From assembly GCA_028865095.1 (NCBI GenBank), contig JAGWLA010000002.1, forward strand, positions 1 through 47,318: 47,318 bases of DNA. Direction: 5' to 3'. The notes under the pieces are model-generated. The model saw only the letters and a program-made list of their open reading frames with translations. It was not told where the DNA came from and did not search any database. The position numbers and the translations under genes were made by a program. The stretch is from Patescibacteria group bacterium. Lineage in GTDB: Bacteria; Patescibacteriota; Minisyncoccia; Phycocordibacterales; PALSA-1337. Shown piece by piece: positions 5,023-37,252 of this stretch. Numbering within the stretch: the stretch's first letter is position 1; every line of letters begins with the position of its first letter.

Positions 5023-6483
5023 TCACGCGTCCGCGCGCGCAGGGAACAGGATGATGACGGCGGCGCCTTCGCCGGGAGAGCCCGCTATATGCGCCGACCC
5101 TCCGGCTTCCTGCACGATATCCTTGACGGTCGCCAAGCCGCGCCCGCCGCCGTCGGGCTTCGTCGAGAATCCGCGGTCGAATGCTCGGGCGGCGTCGGCC
5201 GGGCTCATGCCGCAGCCGTTATCGCGCACCTCTATGCGGCATGCGCGCCCGTCGCTCCTCGCGGATGCCGAGACCGATCGCTCGCCGCTCTCCTTGCTAT
5301 GCCTGCTCCCGGGCGCCGCGCACGCTTCAATGCCGTTGGAGATGAGGTTCAGGAATATCTGGTTGAGCCGCGTGGGGTGCGCCGGCACGCTGACGGGCGC
5401 TACCTCCGATATATCGATGGATACGCCGCTCATCCTCGCCGCATACGCGAGCATGTCGCGGGCCGCCGAGGCTTCCTTGAAGGCGTCCGACCCCGTCTCG
5501 GCCGTTCCTTGCCGTTCCGCCATGCAGCGCTTCATGCTTTCCATGAACGAGAGCATCTTCTTCGAAGCGGCAGTCACCGGCTCGATGTCCTTTTTGAGCT
5601 CGGCGAAGCCCGAAGCCTCGTTGGAGGCTGCGATATGCTCGGCCCTGATAGAAAGGGCGGTGAGCGGGCTCATCAAGTCGTGGAACAGGCCTTTGGCCAG
5701 CTCCCCGAATTTTGCCGTCCGCTCGAGCTCCTCGGTCTTCGCTTGCTCGGCTTCCAGGAGAGAGGCCGTCCTTTCCGCGATGCGCCTCTCGAGGTCGTCG
5801 CGCTCCTCGGTGAGCAGCCTCTCGGAGCGCCGGGCCCGGGCGAGCGACCTCGATATCTCCCTGCTCGACAGCCAGGCGATGAAGCTCAAGAAGAGGAAGC
5901 CGGCCGAATAGGATATGATGTCGGTCGCATTGACCTCGTCGAGCCTCCAGTCGGGGAGGTCGAGGGCGATGGCTTCGTGCGCCCCGAGCGCCGCGAAGAC
6001 GGCGATCATCGCCACGGACACGAGGGCGCTCGGGCCCGGCTCCATGAAGACTCCGGTCGTCACGATGACGAGGGCGATGCCGAAGAGAGTGGCTGGCAAG
6101 CTCGCTCCCCACATCCATCCTGCATACATGGTCCCGATCGCATAGAAAGCGATGAGAAGGAACGATGCGAGCCGGACGCGGCCCGATCTCGATATGGCAT
6201 ATATCGCGCTGCAAGCGATAAGGAAGAAGGCGAATGGGACGGGATGCAGGCCTCGATAGCCGTCGAGGGTGAAGAAATTCCAGACGATGACGAGCTCGAG
6301 CGCCGCGAAGAGGGCGATGGATATCGCCAGGATGACGTTGAGCAGATAGCCTCTGCGCGCGTCGTCCTCTCCGCCTGCCGCCGGCGACGTGATCATGCGC
6401 CACACAGCCGCCGTGCGGCTCGTCGCTTGCCGCGCGGCGGCTGCGGCTCGCTCACGTATCTGCCTATACGCGAACGGCGGCAT
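5023..6483 (-). CDS. Membrane-bound sensor histidine kinase (HisKA + HATPase_c)
   Basis: N-terminal multi-TM region, H-box FHDLMSPLTAL, N-box FLNLISNGIEA, and G-boxes RDNGCGM and GGGRGLA. Confidence 0.85.
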   Translation of the reverse strand: MPPFAYRQIRERAAAAARQATSRTAAVWRMITSPAAGGEDDARRGYLLNVILAISIALFAALELVIVWNFFTLDGYRGLHPVPFAFFLIACSAIYAISRSGRVRLASFLLIAFYAIGTMYAGWMWGASLPATLFGIALVIVTTGVFMEPGPSALVSVAMIAVFAALGAHEAIALDLPDWRLDEVNATDIISYSAGFLFLSFIAWLSSREISRSLARARRSERLLTEERDDLERRIAERTASLLEAEQAKTEELERTAKFGELAKGLFHDLMSPLTALSIRAEHIAASNEASGFAELKKDIEPVTAASKKMLSFMESMKRCMAERQGTAETGSDAFKEASAARDMLAYAARMSGVSIDISEVAPVSVPAHPTRLNQIFLNLISNGIEACAAPGSRHSKESGERSVSASARSDGRACRIEVRDNGCGMSPADAARAFDRGFSTKPDGGGRGLATVKDIVQEAGGSAHIAGSPGEGAAVIILFPARADA

Positions 6484-6666
6484 ATGCCTAGCTGCTCCAG
6501 GGAGCGAACTCTCCGGAAGCTCTCGGTGCGGGGCGTCTCGAGCCCCGCCGGCGGAAGGGTATCCGCATGTGATCGATGCCGTTTGGTGGATAAAGGTTAT
6601 GTCGACGCATAACCTCCATCAGCCTATCAGGCGAGGGCTCAAGTTGTGATGAAAATGGGTTCAAAT

Positions 6667-9515: not shown

Positions 9516-9694
9516 GCAGCTAACTTCGCAGATTGAGTTCTGCCCTCGCGGAGGATTAGAAAGGCTCATCATTAGTCCTACCCAGTGACCAACCCAGCGC
9601 TCTAGAACGCCGGACGAACCGTTTCTTGCCACGAGAGACGGCCTTTAGCGTTCGCCTGCGCGCCCGGTCGGTCCTGCCTTTATCAATACACGAC

Positions 9695-12886
<3,192 letters not shown>

Positions 12887-12904
12887 CCGCTTTTCATCAC
12901 TATC

Positions 12905-16579
<3,675 letters not shown>

Positions 16580-25965: not shown

Positions 25966-26733
25966 TTATTGGGCGGTCGAGCTCGCGGCGCTCAGCAGCG
26001 TGTCGATGCTCGTCTTCATGGTGGCGTACGACTGGGCTCCGGCCAAAGCGATCTTCGAGCCCGACGGGGTGACGATGACGATATACGGGGTGCCTGTCAC
26101 GCCGGCGTTCACGCCGCCTGCGTATTCGGCGTCGATCTTGCCCTTGAAGGAGCCGCTCGCGACGCATGCGTCGAACGCCTGCTTGTCGAGGCCGGCAGCG
26201 GCAGCGGCCTGGTCCATCTGGCCGCTATCGAGGGAGGAGGATTCGCCGGCGCCGTCGGTCGGGAAAGCGTCGAACCAGGCGTGCTCATATTTCCAGAACG
26301 CCGCATTGCCGCCGAGCGACGCGGCGCATTCGAATGCTTGCGCCTGCGTCCCTGCCAGCGGATGCAGGACGTTGCCGTTCGCATCGGGGGCGTCGAGCGG
26401 GAACTGGCGGTAGACCCACGCGACCTTGCCCGAAGGCCCGTACTGGGCCATGACGCTCTCCATGGTCGAATTGAACATCTTGCAGAACGGGCATGAAGGG
26501 TCGGAGTACTCGACGATCTTGATGGGAGCCGAAGGATTCCCGAATATGTGGTCGGCGGCGGTGACGGGGGCCATGTTGACCTGCGGCAGCGACGGCTGGG
26601 GCTGGGCCGAGCCTGCCGGGGCCGAAGAAGGCCTCTGCTGGGTCCAGATGATGGCTATGGCTATTATCGCGGCGGCGATGATGATCGCCCCCGGAAGGGA
26701 GAGCAGCGATCCGGCGGCCTTGTTCGGTTCCAT
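25966..26733 (-). CDS. DsbA-family thioredoxin-fold protein with an N-terminal membrane anchor
   Basis: Shows EYSDPSCPFCKMF (CxxC) and a TM segment AIIIAAAIIAIAIIW. Confidence 0.75.
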   Translation of the reverse strand: MEPNKAAGSLLSLPGAIIIAAAIIAIAIIWTQQRPSSAPAGSAQPQPSLPQVNMAPVTAADHIFGNPSAPIKIVEYSDPSCPFCKMFNSTMESVMAQYGPSGKVAWVYRQFPLDAPDANGNVLHPLAGTQAQAFECAASLGGNAAFWKYEHAWFDAFPTDGAGESSSLDSGQMDQAAAAAGLDKQAFDACVASGSFKGKIDAEYAGGVNAGVTGTPYIVIVTPSGSKIALAGAQSYATMKTSIDTLLSAASSTAQ

Positions 26734-32602: not shown

Positions 32603-33745
32603 ATGAATGAGACGGGAACCATCGGTATGGCAGGAACGATGCCGGGAGCTTCGGCGGTCGATGTCATCGACGCCCTGCTCGAGCGGGCGGCGAAGCTCAA
32701 GGCATCCGACGTCCATATCGATCCGCGGGCGTCGGACATCCTGGTCAGATACAGGATCGACGGCGAGGTCGAGCTTGCGGGGTCCGTTCCGAAGCGCTTG
32801 CATGAAGAGGTCATCGCCCGGCTCAAGATCCTCGCGGGAGCCCGGACCGACGTGCATTCCGTGCCTCAGGACGGGCGCTTCAAAGCCGATCTCAAGGAGG
32901 GACCGTACAATGCCCGCGTCTCATTCATGCCGACCTATCACGGGGAGAATGCCGTCATCAGGCTGCTTTCCGCCTCGCTCGCCGGCCAGTGCACGTTCGC
33001 CTCGCTCGGGTTCACCCCGGAGCATGTGGCGCTCATCACCAAGGCGATGGCCGCTTCCGACGGGCTCATCCTCATGACGGGCCCGACGGGCTCCGGCAAG
33101 ACCACCACTTTGCGCGTCTGCCTCGGCCTCAAGGCCGAGGAGCCGATATCGGTGATGACGCTCGAAGACCCCGTCGAATACGAGGTCCCGGGCGTGCGCC
33201 ATGTCCATATACGGCGTTCGCACGGCGTGAGCTTCGCATCGGGCCTCCGGTCGGCCCTGCGGCAAGACCCCGACGTCATCATGGTCGGAGAGATCCGAGA
33301 CGAGGAGACCGCCCAGACAGTGATCCATACCGCGCTGACGGGCCACCTGGTCTTCTCGACCCTCCATACGACGTCGGCGATCGACGCCATCCCGCGATTG
33401 ATGGATATGGGCATCGAGCCGTACCTTCTCGCGGCGACGCTGCGGCTGGTGGTCGGCCAGCGGCTGGTGCGCAGGATATGCGCGGCATGCGACGGCACGC
33501 GATCCGTCGGCGCGGAAGAGTGCGCCGCTTGCCGAGGCACGGGCTATGCCGGCCGTTGCGTGATCGCCGAAGCCTGCGAGATCGACGATGGCATGCGCGA
33601 CAAGATAGTCTCGGGGGCGCCGGTATCGGCTTTGCGGGACCACGCCGCTTTGGCAGGGTTCAAGACCATGTCGCAGGATGCCGGAGAAAAGGTCGATTGG
33701 GGAGTGACTTCGCGCACCGAGGCGCTGGGGGCGCTCGGCGCTTGA
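32603..33745 (+). CDS. pilB: GspE/PilB-family type IV pilus / T2SS assembly ATPase (short N-terminus)
   Basis: Shows Walker A (GPTGSGKTTT), the Asp box / Walker B (DPDVIMVGEIRD), the His box (TGHLVFSTLHT), and a tetracysteine motif CAACDG...CAACRGTGYAGR. Confidence 0.85.
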   Translation: MNETGTIGMAGTMPGASAVDVIDALLERAAKLKASDVHIDPRASDILVRYRIDGEVELAGSVPKRLHEEVIARLKILAGARTDVHSVPQDGRFKADLKEGPYNARVSFMPTYHGENAVIRLLSASLAGQCTFASLGFTPEHVALITKAMAASDGLILMTGPTGSGKTTTLRVCLGLKAEEPISVMTLEDPVEYEVPGVRHVHIRRSHGVSFASGLRSALRQDPDVIMVGEIRDEETAQTVIHTALTGHLVFSTLHTTSAIDAIPRLMDMGIEPYLLAATLRLVVGQRLVRRICAACDGTRSVGAEECAACRGTGYAGRCVIAEACEIDDGMRDKIVSGAPVSALRDHAALAGFKTMSQDAGEKVDWGVTSRTEALGALGA

Positions 33746-33746
33746 T

Positions 33747-34814
33747 ATGATGCGGAAGATCCGGGCATGGATGGCGCGCGCTCGGCCGGCATGGCGGCAG
33801 CGCGATAAGGCCATGCTGATAGAGCGCCTGGGCATGTATATCGGCGCCGGCCTGCCCGTCGACAGGGCTCTTCTGGCAGCGGCAGACGGGGCGCCGGCCA
33901 GACAAGAGGATTCTTTGAAGAGGGCGGCTGCCGCGGCAGGATCCGGCCAGCCTTTCTGGAAGGCCATCGATCGCGAAGCAAGGCTTCCGGCTTCGGTCCG
34001 CGGCATCGTCTCATGCGGAGAGGCGTCAGGCGGGCTGGCGTCAGCCCTCGCCTCGGCAGCGTCGGTCATGGAAAGGTCCGCCGATATGAAGAGCAAATGC
34101 CTGTCGGCGATGGCCTATCCGGCCGTCATCGCATGCGCGACGGTCGCCATATCCATCGGGCTCATGCGCGGAGTCATGCCGCAGATAGAGCCGTTGCTCA
34201 AGGGCATCGGCTCCGGCCTCCCGCCGCTCACTGTCGCCGTCATGGCAGCCTCCGATCTCCTGGCCTCATATTGGGGGTATGGGCTGTCTGCGACGGCGGC
34301 TCTCGCGGCCGTGCTGTGGTACGGCCATCGGTTCACTCCCGTCCGAGCGGCGATACAGCGGGCCCTCGCTCTTGTCCCGCTGGTCGGGCCGGCCGCGCAT
34401 GCTTATTCGGCATCGGCGATGGCGCGGTCCCTCGGCGCTCTCATGGCGTCGGGCATGCCAGTGGATGCGGCATATGGGGAGGCGATCGGAGCGGTCCCAT
34501 TGCTGAAGCTCCGCAGATCGCTCGAAGCGAAGAAAGAGGGGGTCAGCCGAGGCGAGCCGCTCAATGCCGCCCTGAAGCCGGCGTTGCCTGCCTATGCGTC
34601 GTCCATCGTCGCGGCGGGAGAGATGTCGGGCGATGTCGCCGCGGCTCTCGTGCGGGCGGCGGATATCATGGACAAGGAGCTCGACCGGTCGCTGAAACGG
34701 GCAGCCTCGCTCATCGAGCCGTTGATGATGATGGCCATGGGGACGGCGGTGGGCACGGTCGCGCTGTCGATAATGATGCCGATATATGACATGTCGAAGG
34801 CACTCCAGCATTGA
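33747..34814 (+). CDS. pilC: GspF/PilC-family platform protein
   Basis: Two T2SS-F-like halves with 3 TM segments. It starts 2 nt after pilB. Confidence 0.75.
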   Translation: MMRKIRAWMARARPAWRQRDKAMLIERLGMYIGAGLPVDRALLAAADGAPARQEDSLKRAAAAAGSGQPFWKAIDREARLPASVRGIVSCGEASGGLASALASAASVMERSADMKSKCLSAMAYPAVIACATVAISIGLMRGVMPQIEPLLKGIGSGLPPLTVAVMAASDLLASYWGYGLSATAALAAVLWYGHRFTPVRAAIQRALALVPLVGPAAHAYSASAMARSLGALMASGMPVDAAYGEAIGAVPLLKLRRSLEAKKEGVSRGEPLNAALKPALPAYASSIVAAGEMSGDVAAALVRAADIMDKELDRSLKRAASLIEPLMMMAMGTAVGTVALSIMMPIYDMSKALQH

Positions 34815-34821
34815 ACATGCC

Positions 34822-36291
34822 TTGCCGAGCCCGGGCACGGCGGCCAGGGGCTCGGTCCTCGCCGATGTCCTCGTCGCTTTCGCCGTCGCGGCGCTGTCGG
34901 TCGCTTCATTGTCGCAGGCGACAGCTTCGGCGCGCCAGGCATTCGGGAGAGCGGAGAGCAGGTCCTCGCTCATACAGGCCTTTGAAGAGCATCAAGGAGG
35001 ATTCGAAGGCCTGATGCCGGGCGAGCGGCGGACGGCGGTCTACGAGGGCGTGCGCTTCGAAGCTGAGGCCAGGCGCTATGCCCAAAGCAGGATAGAGACC
35101 GATATCGCAGTCTCGTATGACGCGAGCCGGGCGGCGAGCAGGCCGTACTCCGATGAGGCCGTCGCCTTCGCCATGGTCCGGCCCGATCCGTCAGGTGCGG
35201 CGGGCATTCTTGTCGGCGGACGCCTCTGCGCTGCGGATATGGACGCGGATGAGCCGGTCGGCTCATACGGCTTCTTTGCCTCGTCGAGCAAGGCCGTGCG
35301 GGCCCATATCGTCCCGGTGACGCTCCCCATCGACCCGCTCTTGCCCCTCACCGACATCGCCGTGCACGACGGCAGGGCATATGTGGCGGCGGATTCGGCG
35401 AAGCGGTCGGACCCCGACTTCATCGTCGCCGACATATCCGACCCGTCGCGGCCGCGGATCGTCGGGGCGATCGATACCGGGCCGGGGATCGCAAGCATCG
35501 CGGTCGCGGGAGGCCACGCTTTCGCGGCATCGGCGAGCGCTGCGGCCCAGCTCCAATCCATCCGCTTGAGCGAGGCCGGGCCTCCCGTCCTCGAAGCGAG
35601 CTATCGCCTTCCATTGCCCGAGGCGAGCACGTCGCCTCCGCATGGGACCGCCATCGCCTACAGCCGCGGCATCGCGTACCTCGGCACCGACCGATGGGAC
35701 GGGGAAGAGCTGTCCGCCATCGACGTCTCCGATCCTGCGGCGCCGGCGAAAGTCGGCGGCTTCGAGACAGGCGGAAAGATCAACGATATCGAGGCGCTCG
35801 AGCGGGCGGCCTATGTCGCGGCGGCAGACGCCAGCCAGTTCCGGGCTCTGGACGTGTCCGACCCCCGGTCTATCTCGCTGATAAGCGCCTTCAGCCCGTC
35901 GGGCTGGGAGCGCCAATCCGGCGAGCGGGTGCATTCATTCGAAGGCCGGGTATCGTTCGGAAGGACATCGGGCGGGTTCGATATCGCCGCCGACAAAGAG
36001 CTCTTCGTCTCGGCCGGAGAGGCATTCGCCGGCGCGGCATCGGCGAACATGCCCGGCGGAGTGTATGGGATAGCCTCCGACAGGCGAAGGACCATCGTCG
36101 CGACCGCGTCCTTCGATAAGGAGCTCACGATCTACGATGCCGCATTGTCGCCCGCCAGCACGCGGGAGTGGCCCTTGCCGGCCGCTCCGCAGGCGATGAC
36201 GTGCGATAGGAGCACGGTGTACGTGCTGGCGCGGACCGCGCCGGTCATATATGAAGTCACTCTATCGACATCGGGGAATGACGCTGATTGA
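34822..36291 (+). CDS. Pilin-like signal/anchor fused to an LVIVD-repeat beta-propeller (putative pilus-associated adhesin)
   Basis: A TTG at 34822 gives MPSPGTAARG|SVLADVLVAFAVAALSVASL; an alternative ATG at 34786 would overlap pilC by 29 nt. The body carries LVIVD-like repeats (FIVADISDPSRPRIVG, LSAIDVSDPAAPAKVGG, FRALDVSDPRSISLISAF). Confidence 0.6.
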   Translation: MPSPGTAARGSVLADVLVAFAVAALSVASLSQATASARQAFGRAESRSSLIQAFEEHQGGFEGLMPGERRTAVYEGVRFEAEARRYAQSRIETDIAVSYDASRAASRPYSDEAVAFAMVRPDPSGAAGILVGGRLCAADMDADEPVGSYGFFASSSKAVRAHIVPVTLPIDPLLPLTDIAVHDGRAYVAADSAKRSDPDFIVADISDPSRPRIVGAIDTGPGIASIAVAGGHAFAASASAAAQLQSIRLSEAGPPVLEASYRLPLPEASTSPPHGTAIAYSRGIAYLGTDRWDGEELSAIDVSDPAAPAKVGGFETGGKINDIEALERAAYVAAADASQFRALDVSDPRSISLISAFSPSGWERQSGERVHSFEGRVSFGRTSGGFDIAADKELFVSAGEAFAGAASANMPGGVYGIASDRRRTIVATASFDKELTIYDAALSPASTREWPLPAAPQAMTCDRSTVYVLARTAPVIYEVTLSTSGNDAD

Positions 36292-36412
36292 GGCGCTCGT
36301 CTATGCCGCGCTCCTGGCTTTTCTGATGGCCGGCCTTATGCAGTCGATCTATGCCGCCGGGCAGTCTGATTCCGGCATCATGGAAAGGATATATCGGGCA
36401 TATGAAGGATAA
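36251..36412 (+). CDS. Mini-pilin: 53-aa prepilin-like ORF, not in the supplied ORF track
   Basis: Reads MKSLYRHRG|MTLIEALVYAALLAFLMAGLMQSIYAAGQSDSGIMERIYRAYEG then TAA. It has the canonical basic leader, Gly, then xTLIE with Glu at +5. It overlaps the upstream gene by 41 nt and the downstream gene by 11 nt. Confidence 0.55.
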   Translation: MKSLYRHRGMTLIEALVYAALLAFLMAGLMQSIYAAGQSDSGIMERIYRAYEG

Positions 36413-36731
36413 GCCGTTATCAGGCGGATACGGCGCCGCTGTCGCGGTCGCGATCGTCGCTGTCGGCTCGCTCGCATCGTCTCTGGCATGCATGTCGGCC
36501 GTCAGGGCGTATGCCGACTCCGTATATCGCCGCGAGCTCCGCATCCAGGCCTCTCTGAATGCCGATTCGTGCATAGAAGAGCTCCCTCTTCTCGCGGCCG
36601 CCGACCCGTTCATCGAAGGCGATATAGCGCTTCCCGAGTTCGGGTGCGTCCTGCATGTCGTCGCGGGCCCCGGCGGCCCTTATGCCGCAGGAGCCTCGGC
36701 GTCGCTCGAAGGGGTGTCTTCGAGCCGCTAA
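36402..36731 (+). CDS. Small membrane-anchored protein, possible minor pilus component (PilX/GspK-like N-terminus lacking Glu5)
   Basis: Begins MKDKPLSGGYGAAVAVAIVAVGSLASS. Its position between the pilin genes is suggestive. The ATG at 36402 overlaps the mini-pilin stop. Confidence 0.4.
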   Translation: MKDKPLSGGYGAAVAVAIVAVGSLASSLACMSAVRAYADSVYRRELRIQASLNADSCIEELPLLAAADPFIEGDIALPEFGCVLHVVAGPGGPYAAGASASLEGVSSSR

Positions 36732-36766
36732 CGCCGCATTATCAAGACCGATATAACCGCATCTAT

Positions 36767-37252
36767 ATGCATCGCCATCCATCAATGAAAGGGTTCACTC
36801 TCATCGAAGTCCTCGTCGTCATCGGCATCATCGCCATCCTCGCCGCCGTCGTCCTTGTGGCCGTCAACCCGGGCAGGCAGTTCAAGCTGGCCCGCGATTC
36901 CCAGCGCACCGCCAACGTCGAAGCCCTCGTCAACGCCATCCACCAGAATATGTCCGAGCATCGGGGGTCGTTCGTGTGCGGCGGCGCGGCCAGGGCGTTG
37001 CCGCACGCGTTGACCGCGATCAGAGGGGATGCGACGGACAGCTATGCGGCCTCCGGATACTTGGGCGACATCGCTTCGTGCCTGGTCCCTGACTATATCT
37101 CGGCGCTCCCGTTCGATCCTGCGGTGCCGAGGGCGCATTTCGCCAGCACGACCGATTACGATACGGGATACGAGATCGTCCAAGGCGCGGACGGCCGCAT
37201 CACGGCCAGCTCGACCGGCGAGCTGGTCCCGACGATCGCGGCCACCCAGTAG
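36767..37252 (+). CDS. Type IV pilin / pseudopilin with a prepilin N-terminal cleavage-methylation motif
   Basis: Begins MHRHPSMKG|FTLIEVLVVIGIIAILAAVVLVA. An alternative ATG at 36785 would give MKG|FTLIE. Confidence 0.8.
   Translation: MHRHPSMKGFTLIEVLVVIGIIAILAAVVLVAVNPGRQFKLARDSQRTANVEALVNAIHQNMSEHRGSFVCGGAARALPHALTAIRGDATDSYAASGYLGDIASCLVPDYISALPFDPAVPRAHFASTTDYDTGYEIVQGADGRITASSTGELVPTIAATQ

Follow-up and report, generated by a model that had tools for sequence, protein, structure and literature searches.

Type IV filaments are believed to play a central part in the host attachment of ultra-small Patescibacteria, and their minor pilins are almost unstudied. The minor pilins GspI and ComGE carry a globular β-sheet head and contain approximately 100 amino acids (aa), and the Geobacter pilin PilA-N is a 61-residue truncated pilin that is paired with PilA-C. 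Canonical pilins comprise 111–208 residues; PilA of Caulobacter crescentus comprises 45 (PMC10710030). The Com pilus is capped by four minor pilins (PMC12153270), the expected location of modular pilins is the tip of the filament (PMC8179133), and the β-propeller minor pilin PilX2 of the Saccharibacterium TM7x (Nanosynbacter lyticus) has been proposed to bind the host (PMC11623550). Here we describe a 53-codon open reading frame (ORF) from a Patescibacteria group bacterium (assembly GCA_028865095.1, contig JAGWLA010000002.1). It lies in a window of 47,318 nucleotides (nt), which is the whole stretch of DNA that was analysed. The product, termed the mini-pilin, is encoded in a filament operon between a propeller-bearing pilin and a second pilin-like protein, P2. 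The mini-pilin is probably a functional type IV pilin-like protein cut down to helix α1, which acts as a stoichiometric minor pilin in a tip or priming complex. The gene has two parts:

36251..36277, + strand: leader peptide of the mini-pilin (MKSLYRHRG), coded wholly within the 3´ end of the propeller gene
36278..36412, + strand: mature mini-pilin of 44 aa (MTLIEALVYAALLAFLMAGLMQSIYAAGQSDSGIMERIYRAYEG) and stop codon, supported by the Pfam N_methyl match, the length kept in relatives, the substitution pattern and the AlphaFold2 helix

The mini-pilin resembles the Flp/Tad pilin of C. crescentus (45-residue mature form; PMC10710030) in its length, in its single headless helix and in residues Thr2 and Glu5, and its size is that of Flp/Tad pilins, which have approximately 40–60 mature residues and no globular domain. 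It is not a Tad/Flp pilin, however, because residue +6 is never Tyr and the ATPase of the operon is not TadA-like. Position +6 is occupied by Val, Thr, Ala, Ile, Met or Leu (Tyr in 0 of 63 sequences), so the Flp motif Glu5-Tyr6 is absent. The ATPase scores 47.6 bits on the TadA-family model, compared with 371 bits for GspE, 349 for PilB and 232 for ComGA (NCBIfam, full model length; all below the equivalog cut-offs), and is not of the TadA/CpaF type. In addition, the mini-pilin has an N-terminus of the GFTLIE type and is probably a minor rather than a major subunit. Like Geobacter PilA-N, it is a truncated pilin of the type IVa class, essentially α1, with a likely partner encoded by the neighbouring gene. 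Conversely, it is 17 residues shorter, its match in the PDB is limited to the common N-terminal motif, and P2 has its own [KR]G/F site (the slash marks the cleavage position) and hydrophobic helix, whereas the partner in the PilA-N/PilA-C split pilin carries no pilin signal. An earlier first-pass annotation, made from the sequence alone, ranked the mini-pilin as shorter than the truncated Geobacter pilins. This ranking stands, but pilins this small have a precedent in the 45-residue Caulobacter Tad pilin (PMC10710030). That annotation does not mention the Tad/Flp precedent of approximately 45 aa, the fact that both neighbours are pilin-like, or the naturally occurring fusions to the gene downstream.

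By its description, the T4P-2 system of TM7x is also similar to this locus: it belongs to the Patescibacteria and has a minor pilin with a C-terminal propeller, besides minor pilins and a major pilin that are all small (PMC11623550). The PilX2 propeller is built of RCC1 repeats and the propeller in the window of LVIVD repeats, and the TM7x minor pilins are all described as lollipop-shaped, with no helix-only pilin reported (PMC11623550). The mini-pilin, with 44 residues and a single predicted helix, does not have the lollipop fold of α1 plus a globular β-sheet head. This is a departure from canonical pilins, not from the superfamily; Tad and Geobacter pilins are headless too. The leader, Gly-1, Glu+5, hydrophobic helix, Pfam threshold and machinery context together place the mini-pilin within the sequence definition of type IV pilin-like proteins. 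On balance, what is new here appears to be a conserved family of headless GFTLIE-type minor pilins of approximately 44 residues in a minimal Patescibacteria type IV filament operon.

The mini-pilin gene and its conservation

Retranslation of 36251–36412 on the + strand gives the peptide proposed in the first-pass annotation, MKSLYRHRGMTLIEALVYAALLAFLMAGLMQSIYAAGQSDSGIMERIYRAYEG, followed by a stop codon. The prepilin leader described there as textbook is a class III signal composed of a basic leader, Gly-1, Met+1, Thr+2, Glu+5 and then approximately 20 hydrophobic residues, and it matches Pfam N_methyl (PF07963) with 27.6 bits (E value 2e-6), above the cut-off of 21.2. ATG 36251 is the only in-frame start 5´ of Gly-1. 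As a specificity control, a relaxed class III signal pattern with a hydrophobicity filter was applied to all six frames of the 47-kb window; it returned three sites, in the propeller protein, the mini-pilin and the major pilin, all within the pilus operon. The region 36000–36900 is identical, with 0 indels, in a mine-drainage metagenome of which three runs were assembled independently, so the frame relationships around the mini-pilin are not assembly errors. The idea that the mini-pilin is the frameshifted N-terminus of the downstream gene was rejected on the same indel-free assemblies; it is also countered by the conserved start, leader and G/F site of P2 itself and by the two-gene layout, which is the rule in relatives.

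The ORF had been presented as hidden. It is unlisted in the ORF track supplied with the window, but the public protein collection already holds a gene call for it, P0001, which begins at Met+1 (36278) and has lost the leader. The same start was called in P0124, P0129 and P0133; the annotated products are 44 aa long and leaderless. Translation from Met+1 was rejected as a candidate: Gly-1 is present in 62 of 63 members, and an in-frame ATG lies 3–26 codons ahead of Gly in 60 of the 60 listed family sequences. Furthermore, position +1 is Phe, Leu, Val or Ile in 30 of 63 members. Short overlapped genes fall below common ORF-length filters, and some calls lose the leader, such that the pilus operons of Patescibacteria may be under-annotated.

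When the 53-aa peptide served as the query of a direct protein search, the only match was the gene call of the window itself; the word-index search used is insensitive for proteins so short. This insensitivity was bypassed via the neighbouring propeller gene and then with profiles. One genome per species was scanned for the propeller protein, which located 64 loci, 62 of them with sequence 3´ of the propeller gene. All 62 related Patescibacteria loci contain a short ORF with a prepilin signal directly 3´ of this gene. In the alignment of 63 sequences (62 loci and the window), Glu+5 and Tyr/Phe+9 occur in 63, Gly-1 in 62 and Thr+2 in 55. Thr+2, Leu+3, Tyr/Phe+9, Leu12, Leu13 and Ser14 are the near-invariant positions, and residues 6–21 are hydrophobic across the family. 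The mature length is 41–47 aa, mostly 43–44, in all unfused relatives. At locus L013 (~6478–6620), which encodes a fused form, Ala replaces Gly at -1 (..HRRA/FSLIE..).

Selection on the frame was assessed from the ratio of nonsynonymous to synonymous differences per site (pN/pS), calculated by the Nei-Gojobori method on the closest pairs. The mini-pilin frame gives 0.10–0.35 (median 0.17), and the other two frames give 0.80 and 2.7. The ratio is 0.19 for codons 1–22 and 0.26 for codons 23–35, which overlap with no gene. Conservation of the frame in relatives, on which the first-pass annotation had staked its proposal, is thus borne out at all 62 loci with a pN/pS of approximately 0.2. The family profile, searched against 1.84 billion cluster representatives, matches 141 representatives at E≤1e-10 and 1440 at E≤1e-3. 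The best 150 are nearly all 40–97 aa long, with the match reaching the C-terminus. Pfam N_methyl is matched by 50 of 55 family members (E≤0.01). In public metagenome-assembled genomes, family members are labelled as 'prepilin-type N-terminal cleavage/methylation domain-containing protein', PilV, PulJ, PulG, ComGC or hypothetical, and the literature search found no description of the family. The mini-pilin ORF is a real gene under purifying selection, and its family is present in the databases under generic names and has been uncharacterised so far.

AlphaFold2, run on a 34-sequence alignment, predicts one continuous helix from residue 12 to residue 52 with a predicted local distance difference test score (pLDDT) of 81. 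The C-terminal half of approximately 22 residues is amphipathic, and a globular head is absent. Positions 20, 24, 27, 31, 34, 38 and 41 form a conserved stripe with a mean of 2.6 bits, compared with 1.5 bits at the remaining positions between 20 and 44. In the C-terminal half, the stripe follows the 3-4 spacing of a heptad, a pattern expected for a helix face that would pack on a partner helix. The window copy is a divergent, high-GC member of the family that keeps Tyr25, Ile34, Ile38, Ala41 and Tyr42.

Overlapping genes and fusions with P2

The mini-pilin is encoded in a chain of genes that share one strand and, in part, their ends:

32603..33745, + strand: assembly ATPase of the GspE/PilB/ComGA type, 380 aa (Pfam T2SSE, E value 6.8e-101)
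33747..34814, + strand: platform protein of the GspF/PilC/ComGB type, 355 aa (Pfam T2SSF in two stretches, E value 4.8e-37; NCBIfam GspF, 199 bits)
34786..36291, + strand: propeller-bearing modular pilin, 501 aa (pilin-like N-terminus; C-terminal Pfam LVIVD β-propeller)
36402..36731, + strand: P2, pilin-like protein without Glu+5, 109 aa (MKDKPLSGG/YGAAVAV...; orthologues with two conserved Cys; no known family)
36785..37252, + strand: probable major pilin, 155 aa (MKG/...; Pfam N_methyl and TIGR02532)

The mini-pilin gene overlaps the propeller gene by 41 nt in a different frame (36251–36291) and the P2 gene, whose ATG is at 36402, by 11 nt (36402–36412, ATGAAGGATAA), in agreement with the first-pass coordinates. 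The platform and propeller genes overlap by 29 nt, forming an unbroken chain of overlapping genes from the platform gene to P2. The mini-pilin ATG is embedded in the Tyr-Glu codons (TAT GAA) of the propeller gene. Its start overlaps the propeller ORF at 47 of 60 loci, and an ATG embedded in the codons (TAT GAR) of the conserved C-terminal Tyr-Glu occurs at 30 of 60, the window included. The surrounding propeller codons in the window are ATA TAT GAA. With ATA and GAA in these places (usage of Ile-ATA 14%, of Glu-GAA 30%), the start context is AT-rich, like the other starts in the genome. The window propeller protein extends approximately 7 residues beyond the usual end of its family (...VIYEI.F.), which accounts for the 41-nt length of the overlap. 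At the other end, the P2 ATG lies inside the Tyr42-Glu43 codons of the mini-pilin in the window and within its last codons at 49 of 53 unfused loci, in the +1 frame at 50 of 53; the dipeptides that host it across the loci are Asp40-Ala41, Tyr42-Glu43 and similar pairs. The translational coupling suggested in the first-pass annotation is supported by the conservation of both start overlaps, and the chain of overlapping starts speaks for the coupled production of the three pilin-like proteins in near-equimolar amounts.

Twenty gene starts in the window were examined, and a Shine-Dalgarno sequence is present at none of them; its lack was therefore rejected as an argument against translation of the mini-pilin. 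The 12 nt 5´ of the start codons are AT-richer (guanine plus cytosine, GC, 0.49 compared with 0.64) and often read ..ATAT ATG or ..CAT ATG. A promoter and terminator scan of the operon returned nothing exceeding the shuffled expectation.

P2 orthologues of 85–145 aa are found at approximately 50 loci. They have a short basic leader, a [KR]G/F site and a hydrophobic helix without Glu+5, in the pattern M..[KR]G/F[IVTM]A..A.. followed by Y[AS]DSV.RRE.RIQ..LN..AC.D...FGC, which includes two conserved Cys; P2 has no Pfam or NCBIfam match. At 6 of the 62 loci (L003, L005, L013, L014, L023 and L041), one continuous frame encodes the mini-pilin joined to P2; such fusions also account for approximately 8 of the best 150 cluster representatives (P0204, P0212, P0214, P0231, P0255, P0276, P0282 and P0283), and the share of lineages that carry them is 5–10%. 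Because the linkers differ, the two genes were probably joined on more than one occasion. As a Rosetta-stone pattern, the fusions speak for a physical partnership between the mini-pilin and P2. The fused forms keep both hydrophobic helices, separated by approximately 22 residues, and at the second junction they keep Gly, then Phe and a hydrophobic helix. Such recurrent fusions pose a concrete puzzle of pilin topology and processing.

Possible role at the filament tip and rival explanations

From the gene order, the overlapping starts and the fusions, we infer a minor or priming role for the mini-pilin. Its gene is always located between that of the propeller-bearing pilin, which has Asp+5, and that of P2, which lacks Glu+5, with the ATPase and platform genes upstream. 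Through translational coupling, the three pilin-like proteins would be produced in about equal amounts. A prepilin peptidase whose gene lies in another part of the genome would cleave the leader of the mini-pilin behind Gly9 (processing is assumed), and the 44-residue helix would be inserted in the membrane with its N-terminus inside and its C-terminus outside. Together with the propeller pilin and P2, it would form a low-abundance complex that primes assembly and ends at the tip of a filament made of the 155-aa major pilin. Glu5 of the mini-pilin would neutralise the N-terminus of the neighbouring subunit, and the conserved stripe would pack on a partner helix, probably that of P2. Pilin-like proteins without Glu5, such as GspK and ComGG, presumably occupy the distal end of tip complexes, and P2 would likewise sit farthest out in the complex, in the position that GspK takes in type II secretion systems. 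The mini-pilin would then take the place of the smallest core minor pilin, GspI- or ComGE-like, with the head domain lost. If true, this proposal would make the mini-pilin the smallest known GFTLIE-type pilin and would mean that a bare 44-residue helix can work in a tip complex, setting the minimum requirement for a type IV pilin. The mini-pilin would also offer a tractable case for the minimal contribution of a minor pilin to filament priming or capping.

The likeness to GspI and ComGE consists of the class III signal with Glu+5, the location of the gene among minor pilin genes beside those of the ATPase and platform, and the adjoining Glu+5-less, GspK-like protein and large pilin. The differences are that the mini-pilin is a bare 44-residue predicted helix and that three pilin-like proteins are encoded here compared with four minor pilins in those systems. 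The mini-pilin falls below the cut-off of every NCBIfam minor pilin model. It scores 15.4 bits on ComGE (E value 0.014; cut-off 49) and 14.9 bits on GspI (E value 0.028; cut-off 44.35), and both alignments cover the N-terminal 25–35 residues only.

Several points weigh against the proposed place in the tip complex. The GspI/ComGE assignment is based on position and on sub-threshold N-terminal matches of 15 bits compared with cut-offs of 44–49, and other family members match the ComGD, ComGC or Ppd models equally weakly. A trio of minor pilins instead of the usual four is, to our knowledge, without direct experimental precedent. The window copy is off consensus in its C-terminal half, with GQSDSG where the family has IH..N..L, and the C-terminal conservation (Asp40-Ala41, Tyr42-Glu43) may be partly due to the embedded start of P2 rather than to peptide function. 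No prepilin peptidase (peptidase A24) gene is present within the 47-kb window. The fused forms add a further difficulty: it is hard to reconcile two N-in/C-out anchors joined by approximately 22 residues with both keeping their topology, unless cleavage takes place at the second G/F site or an internal start codon is used for P2. A hairpin fusion would put the Cys-containing P2 domain in the cytoplasm.

These fusions are also the basis of the rival that survives best, although it is itself unlikely, namely that the mini-pilin has no role of its own and is half of a split two-chain subunit with P2, as in Geobacter PilA-N/PilA-C, with a fused precursor possibly cut at the second G/F. The in-frame fusions in several lineages with differing linkers, the conserved +1-frame overlap of the two genes, and the Gly-Phe and hydrophobic helix retained at the second junction are consistent with this explanation, and the best PDB profile match of the mini-pilin is to Geobacter 'geopilin domain 1' (N-terminus only, E value 0.002). 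P2, however, unlike PilA-C, has its own basic leader, G/F site and hydrophobic helix and does not need a donated α1. Prepilin peptidases cleave at the cytoplasmic face of the membrane, and a hairpin would leave the second site facing outward. The split subunit overlaps with the tip-complex proposal, which it refines rather than replaces. A related and similarly tentative suggestion is that the mini-pilin and P2 are pilin modules that have been repeatedly joined and split, the fused precursor with its tandem class-III-type sites giving two pilins as a polyprotein, or else adopting a topology new for pilins.

Somewhat less probable still is a very thin, headless filament of which the mini-pilin would be the main subunit. 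Such a filament would be a convergent Tad/Flp analogue built by a GspE/ComGA-type machine, with the 155-aa pilin secondary or acting elsewhere. The Caulobacter Tad pilin is a single 45-residue helix with a polar C-terminal surface patch and forms filaments alone (PMC10710030), and pili of record-small diameter occur in Saccharibacteria (PMC11623550). Moreover, the mini-pilin has Thr2 and Glu5, which are residues of subunit-subunit contacts, and is part of the invariant core of five genes, whereas a neighbouring 155-aa pilin is found at only approximately half of the loci. On the other hand, the embedded starts at both ends argue for a 1:1:1 ratio with two low-abundance partners and not for mass production, and a homopolymer shaft would not be compatible with in-frame fusions to P2. 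Across the related loci, conservation is far higher for the 155-aa pilin than for the propeller protein (56–79% compared with 31–48% identity), as would be the case for a shaft subunit, and the thin pili of TM7x consist of PilA2, which is lollipop-shaped (PMC11623550).

It is rather improbable that the mini-pilin remains membrane-bound throughout and serves assembly or regulation without ever entering the filament, for example as a pilin-like primer or chaperone of the propeller pilin. A headless mini-pilin would add nothing to the filament surface, and the cluster is devoid of PilM/N/O-type alignment proteins, for which a small membrane helix might serve instead. Nevertheless, an invariant Glu+5 together with Gly-1 and a complete N_methyl motif is the signature of cleaved, polymerised subunits, and we know of no PilN/PilO-type accessory protein with an N_methyl motif.

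Finally, a chance ORF, a decayed pilin fragment (the truncated remnant that the first-pass annotation had left open) or an upstream ORF that serves coupling through an irrelevant peptide might be suspected from the shortness of the ORF, its overlaps with both neighbours, the abundance of spurious ORFs in high-GC genomes and a direct search that found just the peptide itself, but this is refuted with hardly any doubt by the conservation at 62 of 62 loci at a fixed length with invariant Glu+5, by the low pN/pS, also in the non-overlapping part, by the 141 clusters that the profile matches and by the restriction of such motifs to three in the whole window, all in the operon.

Neighbouring genes and other features of the window

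The gene order pilB-pilC-propeller-mini-P2 is kept at essentially all loci; the ATPase gene lies 5´ of the propeller gene in nearly all of them, and the position of the platform gene is conserved. No PilM/N/O/T genes are located within the 47-kb window. The 501-aa propeller protein has the N-terminus G/SVLADVLVAF, and the consensus of 34 homologues is G.ILVDILLA, in which Asp+5 (Asp27) is invariant in place of Glu. Its AlphaFold2 model (pLDDT 88) comprises an α1 helix of 54 residues (20–73), a four-stranded pilin sheet (81–133) and a propeller (approximately 170–495). A fold search with this model found generic WD40-like propellers, with no PilY1-specific match among the 50 matches listed. With this build, the protein is a modular pilin in the sense of PMC8179133. 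More than 500 homologues with 31–50% identity were found, all in Patescibacteria (Parcubacteria, Paceibacterota, Taylorbacteria and similar).

Where the 155-aa pilin gene adjoins the five-gene core, a D-Ala-D-Ala carboxypeptidase gene is next at most of the loci. Over its first ~45 residues, this pilin hardly varies between loci at which the identity of the other genes is 31–48%. Within its gene, at 36790–36848, a 50-nt stretch is matched by many unrelated metagenome contigs at 90–95% identity, and the depth there is 145x compared with 8x in the flanking sequence.

The remainder of the window contains housekeeping genes, including those for an rpoC-type RNA polymerase subunit, dnaG and sigma-70. 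A membrane-anchored thioredoxin-like protein with a CPFC motif, encoded at 25966–26733 on the - strand, resembles the thiol-disulfide oxidoreductase family of PMC6744442. That family has been reported to be enriched in candidate phyla radiation bacteria and proposed to aid in pilin folding (PMC6744442). An ORF of 1872 aa without a family match (9683–15301, - strand) lies antisense to two ORFs, 9626–12886, which is presumably rpoB, and 12905–16579, which encodes RNA polymerase beta' by Pfam. The 1872-aa antisense ORF is most likely spurious, of a kind that is common in high-GC DNA.

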